Of a stretch of 64,000 nt of DNA, positions 41,200 through 45,321 are shown in pieces. The stretch's first letter is position 1. Each line of letters begins with the position of its first letter. The position numbers were made by a program, and so were the translations under genes. Source of the stretch: Pseudomonas phage HPP-Temi. Under the pieces are notes generated by a model. The model did not search any database. It was not told the origin of the DNA and saw nothing but the letters and a program-made list of their open reading frames with translations. The stretch lies in sequence record PP968062.1; one strand, written 5' to 3'.

Positions 41200-41204
41200 G
41201 ATAT

Positions 41205-41531
41205 TTACTCCCAGCCCATTTCGGCTTTGAATTCATCAACGCGGGTATCAACGATGGCTTTATATTCGCCATCGCTATCACGCATCTCTAGTGCCATCTT
41301 GATACGAAGGCCCAGCAGGCGTCGTGAGAAATCCCTGCGCACCTTGAACTCTTGTTCACTTTCAGCGTTGATGCGAGTAATTTCGAAGAGAGCCTCCAGC
41401 TTCTTCGAGAACTCGTTGAAGTAGATCTTGTCCGTGACTTTCTGAGCCAGGATATCTACACCGATCATGATACCAGCTACGGCGAAACCAATGCCAACAC
41501 CGATCGCTACTTCTTTGAGAGTCTGGTTCAT
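41205..41531 (-). CDS. Single-pass membrane protein (about 108 aa from MNQTLKEVAIGVGIGFAVAGIMIGV...); same architecture as 40813..41199
   Basis: The internal Met at 41531 gives an N-terminal TM + helical domain. The longer ORF-track N-terminus (from 41690) overlaps a small upstream ORF. Confidence 0.4.
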   Translation of the reverse strand: MNQTLKEVAIGVGIGFAVAGIMIGVDILAQKVTDKIYFNEFSKKLEALFEITRINAESEQEFKVRRDFSRRLLGLRIKMALEMRDSDGEYKAIVDTRVDEFKAEMGWE

Positions 41532-41568
41532 TTTATATTTTCCTATTTTCGAATTTGGGGGATATTGC

Positions 41569-41721
41569 TTAACGCAGTTCAGCTTTGGGCTTTGCAGCTT
41601 CTTCCTTAGCTTTACGACGTTCTTCCAGCCAGTTGTTGTGGTACATGGCAACGCCAGCGAAGCCAACAACGGCGACGGCGATAAGGCCAAGTTCCAATGC
41701 GTTTTCTTTAATGAAGCTCAT
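41569..41721 (-). CDS. Small single-TM peptide (50 aa), not in ORF track
   Basis: Manual translation: MSFIKENALELGLIAVAVVGFAGVAMYHNNWLEERRKAKEEAAKPKAELR. Cognate stop TAA at 41569-41571. Confidence 0.35.
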   Translation of the reverse strand: MSFIKENALELGLIAVAVVGFAGVAMYHNNWLEERRKAKEEAAKPKAELR

Positions 41722-41726
41722 GGTGA

Positions 41727-42068
41727 TTATCCCTTCAGAGTGCTGTCGGCATTGAAGACATCGGGACCAACCGAGAGACTTCCCAGAAGATCCGGCGCGA
41801 GGTATACGGAGTTGAGAGTTTCGTAAACACCGGCAACGGCATCTACTTTGACCAGACTAGAACTACGCAGGGAAACCCACTCACCGTTGCGATAGGTTTC
41901 ACCGACCAGTACACGAACGTCATCGACGTCGTTACGGTGTGGCCACAGTACCTTGCCTTCCACCACTTCTACGTTACGTGCATGGTAGACCAGTTTACCG
42001 TTCATGCGCGCAACGATGTTCGGACGCTGAAGATCATCGATAACTTTAACAGCGACTGCCTTTTCCAT
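41727..42068 (-). CDS. Hypothetical protein (113 aa)
   Basis: ORF; no TM. Confidence 0.45.
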   Translation of the reverse strand: MEKAVAVKVIDDLQRPNIVARMNGKLVYHARNVEVVEGKVLWPHRNDVDDVRVLVGETYRNGEWVSLRSSSLVKVDAVAGVYETLNSVYLAPDLLGSLSVGPDVFNADSTLKG

Positions 42069-42079
42069 TTTGTATCTCC

Positions 42080-42235
42080 TTATTTAGTTACAAGCATTTC
42101 TTGGCCATTCGGCCCGATACGATGACCGAGGATAACCTCGGATTCTTTTTCAACTTTCGGAGCTTCATAGGAACCACCGTAAACAACAGCAGCACCCAGA
42201 ACCATACCAACCAGAATCATTACGATAGCTTTCAT
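42080..42235 (-). CDS. Small secreted/membrane peptide (51 aa), not in ORF track
   Basis: Manual translation: MKAIVMILVGMVLGAAVVYGGSYEAPKVEKESEVILGHRIGPNGQEMLVTK. Signal-peptide-like N-terminus; sits directly downstream of promoter motif 42267-42303. Confidence 0.35.
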   Translation of the reverse strand: MKAIVMILVGMVLGAAVVYGGSYEAPKVEKESEVILGHRIGPNGQEMLVTK

Positions 42236-42266
42236 GTTGAGTTTCCTTCTCAGAATAGGGGTTTAT

Positions 42267-42303
42267 CACATTTGTAATATACGTTTCAAATGGATTAAAA
42301 TGT
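42267..42303 (-). promoter_or_regulatory. Candidate early-type promoter (gene strand: CATTTTAATCCATTTGAAACGTATATTACAAATGTG)
   Basis: TTTGAAA-N2-TATATTACA motif, 30-70 nt upstream of the small ORF start at 42235. Confidence 0.45.
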
Positions 42304-42326
42304 ACATTCGAATGAGATAAAGGAAA

Positions 42327-42342
42327 GGGCTCCTAAGAGCCC
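42327..42342 (-). terminator. Hairpin GGGCTC ctaa GAGCCC after the stop of 42349..42630
   Basis: Short GC stem immediately after the stop codon, followed on the minus strand by CTTTCCTTTATCTC. Confidence 0.4.
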
Positions 42343-42348
42343 ATCCAG

Positions 42349-42630
42349 TTACAGCTTGTTGAGGAACTTGCGGATCTCTTCACGCAGCTCGCGCAGAGTT
42401 GCGGTCATGAGGATCTTTTCTTCTGCATCGCTGATCAGCCTTTCAGCCAGCCCTTCCAGTTCGATCTTGCGTTCGTCACTGGTGTAATGAGTCGGCAGAC
42501 GATCGTTTGCATCGCGCAGTTGTTGCAGAATTTCTTCCGCGGTGTTTTCGTCGGTCCAGGTGATAGCGATCATAGAGAGAACGCCACCGATGAGAACGCA
42601 GCCGAGACCTTTAGCGATATTGGAAAACAT
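42349..42630 (-). CDS. Single-pass membrane protein (93 aa)
   Basis: N-terminal TM GLGCVLIGGVLSMIAITW + helical domain. Confidence 0.45.
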   Translation of the reverse strand: MFSNIAKGLGCVLIGGVLSMIAITWTDENTAEEILQQLRDANDRLPTHYTSDERKIELEGLAERLISDAEEKILMTATLRELREEIRKFLNKL

Positions 42631-42658
42631 GGTAAATCCTTACAGTTGGAAGTATATG

Positions 42659-42859
42659 TTAAGAGGTTGCTTCTTCGGGAGTAGCTTCGGTCGGTTCCGA
42701 TTCCGGAGTAGCGGGCGCTTCGGTTTCAGCCTCGGGTTCTGTGGCGGGGGTTTCAGCTTCCACCGGTTCCGCAGACAGGGTATCATACAACTTGTAAGCA
42801 GCGGTACCCAGAGCGAGGACAGCTGCAACAGCACCAGAGGCGATCAGAATCTTTTTCAT
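42659..42859 (-). CDS. Small single-TM protein with acidic E/P/T/A-repeat tail (66 aa)
   Basis: MKKILIASGAVAAVLALGTAAY..., then EPVEAETPATEPEAETEAPATPESEPTEATPEEATS. Confidence 0.45.
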   Translation of the reverse strand: MKKILIASGAVAAVLALGTAAYKLYDTLSAEPVEAETPATEPEAETEAPATPESEPTEATPEEATS

Positions 42860-42873
42860 GGGCGGTTTTCCTT

Positions 42874-43203
42874 TTAAGGCAGGTCTTTGTATATGACCTG
42901 TTTGATGTAATGGTCGATCCGCGGTTCAGCGGTCTTCCTGATTGGTTCGTATTCCTTGGAGAGGATTACGGTTACTTCCTCCCAACAAGCATCACGTAAT
43001 AACTCGTAACGCTTCTCGGGAGTTCCAACAAGGTACTGGCTCCTACGGAGCAAGACACAGTGATAGCTATCAATAATCTTACCAGCATCATTAACAACCT
43101 TGTTCACCATGTCGATATGGCGCTGCATCAGATAGGCAGTTCCAGCACAACAGGCTACAACCACGCCAGTCACTACAGCGCCGATGACGTAGACGGTTCT
43201 CAC
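42874..43203 (-). CDS. Single-pass membrane protein (109 aa), apparent GTG start overlapping the upstream stop
   Basis: N-terminal TM VIGAVVTGVVVACCAGTAYL. The rev-comp of 43201-43203 is GTG, inside a GTGA overlap. Confidence 0.4.
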   Translation of the reverse strand: MRTVYVIGAVVTGVVVACCAGTAYLMQRHIDMVNKVVNDAGKIIDSYHCVLLRRSQYLVGTPEKRYELLRDACWEEVTVILSKEYEPIRKTAEPRIDHYIKQVIYKDLP

Positions 43204-43295
43204 GAACCTACTACTTCGTCGTAGATGGCACCTGCAATGTTCATTGCCATGATACCAACGGTTACCACGAAGACGGTCTTGAAGAGAGTGTTCAT
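43200..43295 (-). CDS. Tiny hydrophobic peptide (31 aa), not in ORF track
   Basis: Manual translation: MNTLFKTVFVVTVGIMAMNIAGAIYDEVVGS. ATGA overlap with the upstream peptide gene. Confidence 0.3.
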   Translation of the reverse strand: MNTLFKTVFVVTVGIMAMNIAGAIYDEVVGS

Positions 43296-43402
43296 ACTTG
43301 TTCTCCTTGAGCAGCGTTGAAGACTTCGTCTACAGCCCAGCAGGCAGCGTTGACGACGATGATGCAAGCAGCGAGTTTAACACAGAAACGTGCAAGGTCC
43401 AT
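43292..43402 (-). CDS. Tiny hydrophobic peptide (36 aa), not in ORF track
   Basis: Manual translation: MDLARFCVKLAACIIVVNAACWAVDEVFNAAQGEQV. Start about 35 nt downstream of promoter motif 43436-43469. Confidence 0.3.
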   Translation of the reverse strand: MDLARFCVKLAACIIVVNAACWAVDEVFNAAQGEQV

Positions 43403-43435
43403 GGTGAATCTCCTTGATTTGATTGGCTATTATCA

Positions 43436-43469
43436 CACTTGTAATATAGCCTTTAAATTGGTTTGAATG
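43436..43469 (-). promoter_or_regulatory. Candidate early-type promoter (gene strand: CATTCAAACCAATTTAAAGGCTATATTACAAGTG)
   Basis: TTTAAA-N2-CTATATTACAAG; best match to the window consensus. Confidence 0.45.
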
Positions 43470-43476
43470 TAATCGG

Positions 43477-43911
43477 TTAAACTACCGACTTGCGGGTAAT
43501 GCGTTCGATCAGGTTCTGATCAGTGATGAAGTGACCCAGTACACGACCGATGATATCATCGGCCATGTGTTCGTTGTGGATGTTCACATCAGTGCACAGG
43601 TTGTTGATCAGGCCAGCTTGGCGCTGAAGACCTTGAGTGTTAGCGATGGACTTCTTGCGATATTCCTTGATCACTTCAACGAACTGACGTTCACCGGTAA
43701 TGAAGCGACTGTTCAGACTGGAATAACGCAGGATGTTTTCCATCTTGCCGATCATGTTGTCCATGGTCGACATGTGCCACTTCCAGATATCGGACTTGAT
43801 ATCCTTGGCCAGTTCACGTTGATGGTTCATGTAGATGGCATAAGACATGTAAGCGATGAAGGCGATTACACTCAGGGCTACGATTACGTTGATTGCGATA
43901 TTCATTTTCAA
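43477..43911 (-). CDS. Single-pass membrane protein (144 aa)
   Basis: N-terminal TM NIAINVIVALSVIAFIAYMSYAIYM. Confidence 0.45.
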   Translation of the reverse strand: MKMNIAINVIVALSVIAFIAYMSYAIYMNHQRELAKDIKSDIWKWHMSTMDNMIGKMENILRYSSLNSRFITGERQFVEVIKEYRKKSIANTQGLQRQAGLINNLCTDVNIHNEHMADDIIGRVLGHFITDQNLIERITRKSVV

Positions 43912-43978
43912 TTTCCTTTTGGGTTGGAGTGAAGCGACATAAAGCCCTGATCGGAATGACCAGGACTTTTAAGTTTGG

Positions 43979-44452
43979 TTAAGCAAGGGCCGCCATCCAG
44001 GGCGGTACAACGACCACCATCTCGTTTGGGATATGACCGCTGAATAGTTCTAATGCTTGTTTCACATCAGGCCATTTCAACATGCCGTTTCCGCAACCGA
44101 GCGGGGGTACAACGATCTTCCACTTAGGGTCGATCCCATCTTCTACATCAATGTTGTCGACGATCCATTGAAGACCGTCATTGATGTAGCTTAACTGTGA
44201 ATCATCTTGCCACCGATCTTTAGTCGGGAACATCATGTAACGTTTACCATCATCACCTAGATAGATGGCTGGGTTACCGATTGTGATGATACGGTACTTG
44301 CAGTCATGCTTGTACTTCTGATACAGCTCGGGGAACTTATCGCGAAACCTCTCGGCTAGACCAGTTCCCATTACGCCTCGGGTGTTAACAGTGATAAGGT
44401 AAAGATCCCCAGGCTCTTTAAAGATGTCTTTACCTATTACGAATTCAGCCAT
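43979..44452 (-). CDS. Macrodomain protein, TARG1/OARD1/DarG-like (putative ADP-ribosyl hydrolase; candidate anti-defence factor)
   Basis: LYLITVNTRGVMGTGLAERFRDKFPE parallels the TARG1 N-terminal motif (C-x-MGAGIA-x-x-FK-x-KF), and VVPPLGCGNGMLKWPDVKQALELF parallels the TARG1 region (MPRIGCGLDRLQWENV). Length 157 aa fits a stand-alone macrodomain. Confidence 0.6.
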   Translation of the reverse strand: MAEFVIGKDIFKEPGDLYLITVNTRGVMGTGLAERFRDKFPELYQKYKHDCKYRIITIGNPAIYLGDDGKRYMMFPTKDRWQDDSQLSYINDGLQWIVDNIDVEDGIDPKWKIVVPPLGCGNGMLKWPDVKQALELFSGHIPNEMVVVVPPWMAALA

Positions 44453-44521
44453 AGTGAATGGCTCCTTTGCCCTACAAAAATCTAATGGTCATGAGACCAC
44501 AACTCATCAGATTGTGCAAGA

Positions 44522-44686
44522 TTAGGCGAACTCGTTTACCGCCTTTTTTACTGCTATAGTTAGGGTAATTGCAGCGGTTATCATCGCGAGTCCAGCGGTT
44601 GCATATTGGAGCAGTTCACGGTTGTGCGCATACTCGCGTCTGGATTTCTCGTTGTCTTCGTGGGACTTTTTGTGATCGTAGAACAT
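44522..44686 (-). CDS. Small single-TM peptide (54 aa), not in ORF track
   Basis: Manual translation: MFYDHKKSHEDNEKSRREYAHNRELLQYATAGLAMITAAITLTIAVKKAVNEFA. Confidence 0.3.
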   Translation of the reverse strand: MFYDHKKSHEDNEKSRREYAHNRELLQYATAGLAMITAAITLTIAVKKAVNEFA

Positions 44687-44695
44687 GATGTATCC

Positions 44696-44839
44696 TTAGA
44701 GACCGTTAAAGATCAAAGTGAGAATCAAAGCAACTGCAAAGGTAGCGATTACGCCTTCGAGTGTAATCCAGCTCGGAGGTGTGTTGGGGTCATTACGCTT
44801 TTCACGGGGGAACATTTCTTCCTTAGCTTGTTCTTGCAT
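44696..44839 (-). CDS. Small single-TM peptide (47 aa), not in ORF track
   Basis: Manual translation: MQEQAKEEMFPREKRNDPNTPPSWITLEGVIATFAVALILTLIFNGL. About 30 nt downstream of promoter motif 44868-44900. Confidence 0.3.
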   Translation of the reverse strand: MQEQAKEEMFPREKRNDPNTPPSWITLEGVIATFAVALILTLIFNGL

Positions 44840-44846
44840 AAAGCAC

Positions 44847-45278
44847 CTAATAGAACTGGTTTATTCCCTCTTGTGATATAGGGTTTAAAATGCTTTGAAT
44901 GCAAGGTGGACATTCACGCAGTTCTATAATCAACGCTTCTATGTTACCTTCTTCATTACAATACGTTTGTACATTAGTTATTTCCCCATTTAGACTATTG
45001 AATGCTAGCCTGTGGTGATGATACAGATCTCTGAAGTGCCCTTCAAAGTAACTAGCCGATACCGGATAACGCTGGAGTTCCATTAGGATGTATTGATAAC
45101 CCTTATTGAACTCTTGGGCATTATGGTTGTAAATGAAGTTGTGTTGCAGTTTGATGTATTCAGTTGCCAAAGAGTACAGATGGTTTATTACATCCATGTT
45201 GAGGTCAATGAACCCCTTTAAAGATCCAATATAGTTGTATGACCATACGTGGTCAATACGAAAGAGCACGTTCTGCAT
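44847..45278 (-). CDS. Hypothetical protein (143 aa)
   Basis: ORF; His/Tyr/Asn-rich; preceded by terminator hairpin 45300-45321. Confidence 0.45.
   Translation of the reverse strand: MQNVLFRIDHVWSYNYIGSLKGFIDLNMDVINHLYSLATEYIKLQHNFIYNHNAQEFNKGYQYILMELQRYPVSASYFEGHFRDLYHHHRLAFNSLNGEITNVQTYCNEEGNIEALIIELRECPPCIQSILNPISQEGINQFY
44868..44900 (-). promoter_or_regulatory. Candidate early-type promoter (gene strand: GCATTCAAAGCATTTTAAACCCTATATCACAAGAG), embedded in the 3' end of ORF 44847..45278
   Basis: TTTTAAA-N3-CTATATCACAAG motif. Confidence 0.4.
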
Positions 45279-45299: not shown

Positions 45300-45321
45300 C
45301 CCACCCCAATTAAGGGGTGGG
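45300..45321 (-). terminator. Rho-independent terminator (CCCACCCC aattaa GGGGTGGG, with a U-tract on the minus strand); stop codon of the upstream gene lies in the loop
   Basis: Perfect 8-bp stem; the preceding A-rich run gives TTTTTATTTAGG on the minus strand. Confidence 0.65.

Follow-up and report, generated by a model that had tools for sequence, protein, structure and literature searches.

The Pseudomonas jumbo phage PhiKZ carries a stand-alone DarG2-like macrodomain protein, gp104, which was named AdfM (anti-DarT factor macro) and published in April 2026 together with gp108 of PhiPA3 (Morgan et al., Cell Rep 2026, PMC13309987); AdfM is present in about half of chimalliviruses (PMC13309987). 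In vitro, PhiKZ gp104 strips the ADP-ribose that DarT2 has placed on a TNTC oligonucleotide, less well as the N23A variant. It also rescues DarT2 toxicity, and its deletion costs the phage 3-6 logs of titre on DarTG2 hosts, where phage DNA is ADP-ribosylated and genome packaging fails (PMC13309987). Deletion of PhiPA3 gp108 behaves alike, with several logs of titre lost on DarTG2 hosts (PMC13309987). PhiKZ mutants without gp104 grow normally on hosts that have no DarTG2, and among nine clinical strains infected by wild-type PhiKZ, titre was lost only on the two with DarTG2 (PMC13309987). Here we analyzed a stretch of 64,000 nucleotides (nt) from Pseudomonas phage HPP-Temi (sequence record PP968062.1; hereafter the window) and found that a gene on its minus strand, at 43979..44452, encodes an orthologue of PhiKZ gp104 that is very probably, like AdfM, an eraser of the ADP-ribose placed on DNA by DarT2.

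Phages are also known to counter DarTG by means of proteins with unrelated folds. In T4-like phages, a NADAR-domain enzyme is another orphan antitoxin-like eraser that works against DarTG, although it reverses the guanine ADP-ribosylation caused by DarT1 (PMC11825919). AdfB (Gp145) of phage ICP1 shares with the HPP-Temi protein its phage origin and its role in counter-defence against DarTG; however, AdfB binds DarT directly and the mark is not erased (PMC11481870).

The gene and its relationship to PhiKZ gp104

The interval 43979..44452 corresponds exactly to one complete open reading frame (ORF) on the minus strand, which runs from an ATG at 44452 to a TAA at 43981..43979 and encodes 157 amino acids (aa); the plus-strand frame over the same interval is interrupted by many stop codons. 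A preliminary description made from the sequence had delimited this ORF, without a strand, and had quoted two motifs from it, both of which lie in the 157-aa protein (VNTRGVMGTGLAERFRDKFPE at aa 22-42 and PPLGCGNGMLKWPDV at aa 116-130). A Shine-Dalgarno sequence, AAGGAG, can be read at 44462..44467 on the minus strand, 9 nt 5' of the ATG, and the Shine-Dalgarno region, GAAGGAGCCATT, is kept in both PA1C and PhiKZ. An independent public assembly contig encodes an identical 157-aa protein, and the same neighboring genes were called there. The gene and its PA1C counterpart share 89% nucleotide and 95% amino-acid identity, with a ratio of nonsynonymous to synonymous substitution rates (dN/dS) of 0.039; in this comparison the gene is under strong purifying selection.

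The DNA of the window is approximately 81% identical to that of the 300-kb Pseudomonas aeruginosa jumbo phages PA1C, PS119XW, phiHQ and BRkr. The PA1C counterpart of the gene is annotated as "similar to PHIKZ104" and labelled "hypothetical protein". In a direct comparison, the HPP-Temi protein was 61% identical to PhiKZ gp104 (PHIKZ104) over its full length (97% coverage), with a single match in PhiKZ and a single one in the window, and the genes upstream of it are collinear homologues of PhiKZ gp099, gp100, gp101, gp102 and gp102.1. The ORF is the positional orthologue of PhiKZ gp104/AdfM in a PA1C/PS119XW-like Pseudomonas jumbo phage. Like PhiKZ gp104 and PhiPA3 gp108, it is a stand-alone macrodomain of approximately 160 aa to which the N23/K78 numbering applies; like PhiKZ gp104, it is present in a single copy, follows gp099-gp102.1 and has a predicted early-promoter site before gp102.1. 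It belongs to a Pseudomonas jumbo-phage lineage of which PS119XW and phiLBG22 encode PicA. The locus differs from that of PhiKZ in that an unrelated 54-aa ORF stands in place of gp103, the neighbors further downstream are not gp105-gp116 but a different block, and the patch of the protein implicated in nuclear import is 53% identical. The family and its function are already known under the name AdfM, and the earlier statement that such a stand-alone copy had not been characterized in phiKZ-like phages is out of date, since PhiKZ gp104 and PhiPA3 gp108 have now been published. Fold, family, conserved residues, orthology, purifying selection and the promoter motif were established on the HPP-Temi sequence; its activity, nuclear import and timing we infer.

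A DarG-type macrodomain

The protein matched the Pfam Macro family (PF01661) with 30.6 bits, above the curated cut-off of 22, and with E = 3.5e-7 over positions 3-117 of the 118-position profile, as expected for the macrodomain that had been suspected. The PADLOC DarG model was matched with E = 3.2e-36 at positions 8-145 of 329, i.e., in the N-terminal macrodomain half only. The NCBIfam model antitoxin_DarG (NF048014) likewise matched in its macrodomain half (positions 7-148 of 338), with 123.3 bits, below the whole-protein cut-off of 250. Among solved structures, a single-sequence search ranked the macrodomain of M. tuberculosis DarG (5m3i) first (E = 5.5e-22), with the T. aquaticus DarG macrodomain (5m31/5m3e) at E = 3.7e-21 and the fused Thermosipho DarTG (7omu) next; human TARG1 reached only E = 1.1 in the same search. 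A profile built from 24 phage homologues gave the same order (DarG, 1e-41; TARG1, 2.8e-9; yeast Poa1p, approximately 1e-3).

An AlphaFold model built on the alignment of the 24 homologues had a predicted local distance difference test score (pLDDT) of 94.5 and a predicted template modeling score (pTM) of 0.90. In this model the protein adopts the macrodomain fold, a mixed beta-sheet between helices, and its closest structures were 5m3e, 5m3i and 5m31 (template modeling score [TM] 0.82-0.86) and 7omu, followed by TARG1 (TM approximately 0.77-0.86). There were 215 fold matches in the PDB at E <= 0.001, and the best 50 of the 215 were macrodomains or designed proteins of that fold. The protein is therefore a member of the TARG1/DarG clade, as had been proposed, and within that clade it is clearly DarG-like rather than TARG1-like by profile, sequence and fold.

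With the DarG2 macrodomain (5M3E, 5M31, 5M3I) the protein shares 33-34% identity and the residues N22, K80, W83 and GxGNG. It differs from DarG2 in being encoded by a phage, in having Thr in place of K29, and in lacking the C-terminal DarT-binding domain, of which no trace was found: the protein ends at residue 157, and DarG models were matched in their macrodomain half only. A Pfam search of ten neighboring ORFs returned nothing over threshold, and in particular no match to a DarT or ADP-ribosyltransferase (ART) family among these ten flanking ORFs, which were the ones screened. We considered and ruled out a DarG antitoxin in the strict sense, given the missing DarT-binding domain and the lack of a DarT/ART match among the ten flanking ORFs. 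Because there is no DarT-binding domain, the enzyme could only undo the modification and would not sequester the toxin.

Predicted active-site residues

HMMER alignments placed N23, K78 and W81 of the HPP-Temi protein on the substrate-positioning N22, the catalytic K80 and W83 of T. aquaticus DarG, and the loop G119-C-G-N-G123 on the GxGNG loop G117-G121 by which DarG holds the ADP-ribose. N23, T77, K78, G119 and G123 were invariant in the 24 homologues, and position 81 was always aromatic (Trp in 21 of the 24, Phe or Tyr in the others). In T. aquaticus DarG, the K80A substitution inactivates the enzyme and N22A is the next most damaging (Jankevicius et al., PMC5179494); N23A lowers the activity of PhiKZ gp104 (PMC13309987). 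W83 was proposed to stack on the modified thymine, yet W83A had little effect in the assay used (PMC5179494). We predict that N23, K78, W81 and the loop G119-G123 are the catalytic or substrate-binding residues of the HPP-Temi protein.

With TARG1/OARD1 (4J5S), which acts on Glu/Asp-linked ADP-ribose on proteins, the protein shares the macrodomain sub-fold and the catalytic lysine (K84 in TARG1, K78 here); the identity is only approximately 21%, and two positions set the proteins apart. The invariant G123 falls where TARG1 has D125, and DarG also has Gly there (GCGLD in TARG1 versus GCGNG here); the position of the DarG W83 is Ala in TARG1 (A90) and Trp (W81) here. Of the TARG1 pair K84/D125 that had been suggested as a check on the assignment, the lysine is thus kept, whereas the aspartate position is occupied by an invariant glycine, as in genuine DarG.

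Proposed function

We consider it very likely that the gene product is an orthologue of PhiKZ AdfM acting as an anti-DarT2 DNA ADP-ribose eraser. In the proposed mechanism, host DarT2 would attach ADP-ribose to thymine within TNTC motifs where the phage DNA is single-stranded. The free-standing DarG2-type macrodomain made by the phage would bind the ADP-ribose via N23, T77 and the G119-G123 loop, W81 would stack on the modified thymine, and K78 would cleave the bond between thymine and ribose; with the DNA restored, replication and packaging could proceed. If it behaves like its PhiKZ and PhiPA3 orthologues, the enzyme would be concentrated in the phage nucleus through PicA. A promoter of the virion-polymerase type at 44880 probably drives early transcription of the gene. 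The anti-defence hydrolase of DarT-modified DNA that the preliminary description had envisaged is supported by the profile, sequence and fold comparisons and by the experiments on the PhiKZ and PhiPA3 orthologues (PMC13309987).

The window contains 2175 TNTC sites over both strands, versus 2457 +/- 43 expected from dinucleotide shuffles, an apparent depletion of approximately 11%. An avoidance of TNTC was nevertheless rejected: the trinucleotide-aware ratio of observed to expected sites was 1.05, and TNTC ranked 50th of 64 comparable patterns.

Possible nuclear import

PhiKZ gp104 localizes to the phage nucleus (PMC13309987). A lineage-specific import-recognition surface has been mapped to aa 77-95 of PhiKZ gp104, and PicA has been implicated in import (PMC11087766). 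The corresponding 19 residues of the HPP-Temi protein (residues 77-95; 44168..44224, minus strand) were 53% identical to PhiKZ gp104 and 100% identical to the PA1C counterpart, and the N-terminal 65 residues were 74% identical to PhiKZ gp104. This pattern would be expected if import is lineage-specific and agrees with a joint evolution of cargo and import machinery, but in itself it proves neither. The closest relatives, PS119XW and phiLBG22, encode PicA homologues (49% identity); a search of the window for homologues of PhiKZ gp059-gp082, PicA included, found none.

Transcription of the gene

The preliminary description placed the gene in an early island. In PhiKZ, the 39-nt gap before gp102.1 holds a long motif, ATTCAAAC..ATTTAAACAGTATATTAC, of which TATATTAC is a part, and it was from this gp102/gp102.1 gap that the promoter motif was obtained. 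The motif also occurs upstream of PhiKZ gp005, gp006, gp010, gp010.1 and gp105, and at gp005, gp010, gp010.1, gp102.1 and gp105 it coincides with a step up in RNA 2 min after infection in published RNA-seq data (Gerovac et al. 2024, source data of Fig. 3b; two replicates, sampled from -2 to 10 min relative to infection). At the site upstream of gp102.1, the RNA level rose from approximately 3 to 159 units at 2 min. PHIKZ102 was silent, at 1-3 units, while PHIKZ102.1, gp103, gp104 and gp105 were on from 2 min; the mRNA of gp104 itself stood at 258, 375, 474, 568 and 572 units from 2 min onward. The block from gp102.1 to gp116 tracked the classical early genes gp005-gp023 (positions 106424-108575 of the PhiKZ record were examined; L002 4908-7059).

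In the window, a predicted PhiKZ-type early promoter, i.e., one for the virion RNA polymerase, lies at 44867..44904 on the minus strand (TTGCATTCAAAGCATTTTAAACCCTATATCACAAGAGG, with the core TATATCAC at 44880..44873). It is located inside the 3' end of the gp102 homologue, approximately 35 nt upstream of the gp102.1 homologue, in a position homologous to that of the gp102.1 site in PhiKZ. With a matrix made from five PhiKZ sites only it scored 22.2 bits, having been an untrained hit of 29 bits in an earlier scan; it is kept in PA1C (L001 9847, 27.5 bits), and PhiKZ has the same core variant, TATATCAC, in a strong occurrence of the motif ahead of gp010. The next predicted early promoter, at 43435..43472 on the minus strand (core TATATTAC at 43448..43441), scored 32.8 bits with the PhiKZ-only matrix, is kept in PA1C (L001 8416) and was taken as the start of the following early unit. 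The PhiKZ-only matrix matched the window at five sites, all on the minus strand, in the sense of the genes (cores at 43448, 42281, 44880, 20621 and 26919), as against 0-1 matches at or above 10 bits in shuffled windows. The motif has the form ATTCAAA..TTTAAA..TATAT[T/C]AC, and its two strongest occurrences as well as the 44880 site are kept in PA1C. A de novo promoter search by counts of AT-rich 8-10-mers gave only a recurrent ribosome-binding motif, AAAAGGAAATT, and a sigma-70 promoter scan showed no enrichment (5 found versus 4.6 expected), in keeping with a phage that makes no use of the host polymerase.

The predicted early unit would thus run from the promoter at 44880 through the 47-aa gp102.1 homologue, the 54-aa ORF, the macrodomain gene and a 144-aa ORF, with the next promoter at 43448. 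On its upstream side, a strong intrinsic terminator was found by the terminator scan at 45300..45321 on the minus strand (CCCACCCC-loop-GGGGTGGG followed by TTTTTATTT; -20.6 kcal/mol, with 0 of 200 shuffles as stable). This terminator has a G+C-rich stem of 8 bp that leads into a T-run; it overlaps the stop codon that ends the gp101 homologue and closes the upstream block of virion genes, parting it from the gp102 homologue and the early unit. Within the unit, a stable terminator-like hairpin occupies the gap 5' of the macrodomain gene (44472..44519, minus strand; -21.3 kcal/mol on RNA folding, z = -2.45); the terminator scan flagged 44500..44485 in it, its stem is kept in PA1C while its loop differs, and it might attenuate transcription. 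A 12-bp hairpin followed by UUUAU, also terminator-like, lies at 43941..43969 on the minus strand just after the stop codon of the macrodomain gene (-17 kcal/mol, z = -4.18, 1 of 200 shuffles as stable).

The early-promoter motif at the homologous position and the early mRNA of PhiKZ gp104 support, by inference, the early placement proposed before, and the macrodomain gene is probably part of an early transcription unit in HPP-Temi. The literature is in conflict on this point: AdfM is described as late in PMC13309987, whereas gp104 mRNA is present at 2 min in the data of Gerovac et al. 2024. An initial view that the early placement was wrong, which rested on the statement of late expression and on the position of the gene after a virion block with a terminator, was dropped in light of the RNA-seq data and the promoter motif. 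On balance we slightly favor the reading that AdfM is an early gene of the virion RNA polymerase both here and in PhiKZ, not a late one as stated in PMC13309987.

Alternative explanations

Several observations weigh against our interpretation of the HPP-Temi protein as an early, nuclear, AdfM-type eraser. It differs from PhiKZ gp104 at 39% of its residues, and in place of K29 of T. aquaticus DarG, a residue whose change to Glu (K29E) impairs DarG, it has Thr, while most of the phage homologues have Ala. Macrodomains can be promiscuous, and protein or RNA may also serve as substrates. Because the import patch is only 53% identical to that of PhiKZ, import cannot be assumed from the PhiKZ data; neither ChmA nor PicA is contained in the window, and nucleus formation and import rest on relatives with approximately 81% DNA identity. 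With respect to timing, Morgan et al. (PMC13309987) state, citing Ceyssens 2014, that AdfM is expressed late, and the hairpin at 44519..44472 stands after the 54-aa ORF, between the predicted early promoter and the macrodomain gene.

A general ADP-ribose enzyme, such as a TARG1-like de-ADP-ribosylase of protein or RNA, an O-acetyl-ADP-ribose deacetylase or an ADP-ribose-1''-phosphate phosphatase, would agree with the "phosphatase" label of PHROG 335 and of many GenBank homologues, others of which are called "Appr-1-p processing protein", and TARG1 and yeast Poa1p are indeed detectable relatives by fold and profile. Both labels derive from the last of these activities, that on ADP-ribose-1''-phosphate. 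These "phosphatase" labels are, however, inherited annotations rather than tested functions, and DarG matched at least 30 orders of magnitude better than TARG1 or Poa1p. The substitution of Gly for TARG1 D125 and the presence of the thymine-stacking Trp of DarG (W81), which is Ala in TARG1, also speak against such an enzyme, as does the fact that the only demonstrated phenotype of the orthologue is specific to DarTG2 (PMC13309987); we regard this explanation as unlikely. The preliminary description had also raised the hydrolysis of ADP-ribose-derived immune signals, for which we found no support. That the protein degrades or sequesters such signals, for example the cyclic ADP-ribose isomers of Thoeris, has in its favor only the general fact that macrodomains bind ADP-ribose; the active site matches that of the DNA glycohydrolase DarG residue for residue, the PhiKZ deletion mutants lose titre only on the two DarTG2 clinical strains of nine, and the orthologues localize to the nucleus (PMC13309987), which would keep them from cytoplasmic signals. 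This makes the immune-signal explanation very improbable.

The macrodomain could also be an antidote to, or a regulator of, an ADP-ribosyltransferase of the phage itself, forming an internal pair of writer and eraser, and some distant Streptomyces-phage homologues do stand under "ADP-ribosyltransferase" features. Yet none of the ten flanking ORFs screened matched Pfam ART or DarT families, the neighbors are small hydrophobic and virion proteins, and the normal growth of PhiKZ mutants on hosts without DarTG2 shows that no phage-borne toxin is unmasked, so that we give little credence to such a pair. A decaying remnant of a captured host DarG gene would account for the presence of only half of DarG and for the score under the NCBIfam whole-protein cut-off; this idea is effectively refuted by the dN/dS of 0.039 and by the key residues kept in the 24 homologues, and the confident fold model, the kept ribosome-binding site and the finding that the DarG macrodomain alone is sufficient as an antitoxin (PMC5179494) are likewise at odds with it. 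The assignment to AdfM-type erasers of DarT2 marks is the explanation that we retain.

Neighboring genes and synteny

The "membrane miniproteins" that had been noted beside the gene are real: the small flanking ORFs mostly have one strongly hydrophobic segment each. Among 12 other ORFs checked in 41205-45278, nine contain a 19-residue segment with a mean Kyte-Doolittle hydropathy of at least 1.76, a count that includes two overlapping alternative ORFs at 43200..43402; the 19-residue maximum of the macrodomain protein itself is 0.95. The homologue of gp102.1 (44696..44839, minus strand), predicted to be the first gene of the early unit, encodes 47 aa with a C-terminal hydrophobic segment (hydropathy maximum 2.31) and is 45% identical to PhiKZ gp102.1. 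It is followed by the 54-aa ORF (44522..44686, minus strand), which has one hydrophobic segment, stands in place of PhiKZ gp103 without being homologous to it, and was called as a gene on the independent contig and annotated in PA1C. Downstream of the macrodomain gene, the 144-aa ORF (43477..43911, minus strand) has an N-terminal hydrophobic segment and is not homologous to PhiKZ gp105.

Further small hydrophobic ORFs were recognized by Kyte-Doolittle hydropathy on the minus strand at 42080..42235, 42349..42630, 42659..42859 and 42874..43203, and one with overlapping alternatives at 43200..43367 or 43292..43402. In all, eight small ORFs of 36-144 aa on the minus strand of 42080..44839, each with one hydrophobic segment (maximum 1.76-2.34), lie in predicted early units; none of the eight matched a Pfam family. 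Synteny with PhiKZ breaks downstream, at approximately 41200..44700; there is no homologue of gp103 here and none of gp105-gp111 in the window. The region beyond the small ORFs includes homologues of PhiKZ gp010.1-gp022, according to the PA1C annotation; therefore, two early regions that are approximately 100 kb apart in PhiKZ adjoin in this lineage.

The most repeated AT-rich 10-mer of the window was AAAAGGAAAT(T), found on the minus strand at 43920, 39955, 37946, 37737, 33913, 20589 and 5298. At 43920, the one occurrence compared with a start codon, it lies a few bases before an ATG and looks like a favored strong ribosome-binding context.

Homologues in other phages

Homologues of the macrodomain protein are common, with 273 phage records at E <= 1e-5, and they include non-jumbo phages of 54-78 kb; judging from the latter, AdfM-like erasers are not confined to nucleus-forming phages. 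The annotations of the homologues are inconsistent and mostly inherited, and range over "phosphatase", "Appr-1-p processing protein" and "protein-ADP-ribosylation protein". The homologue in phage RVTF4 is labelled "cysteine-type peptidase", and some distant ones in Streptomyces phages stand under "ADP-ribosyltransferase".

Implications

Our results suggest that the HPP-Temi gene, its PA1C counterpart, now a "hypothetical protein", and many of the homologues labelled "phosphatase" should be re-annotated as AdfM-type anti-DarTG2 factors. Such an annotation matters when the host range of therapeutic Pseudomonas jumbo phages is to be predicted for clinical strains with DarTG2. The five early-promoter motifs could be used to delineate the early regulon in this lineage of phages.

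The one point that goes beyond the literature is timing, which, if confirmed, would change when the counter-defence acts. If AdfM is early, the eraser would be made within minutes, before or during the formation of the nucleus, and could shield the injected genome when it is most exposed; the eraser's transcript in this lineage would also encode three small proteins of the membrane type. The timeline of the conflict between DarT2 and AdfM, which PMC13309987 places late, at packaging, would then shift.

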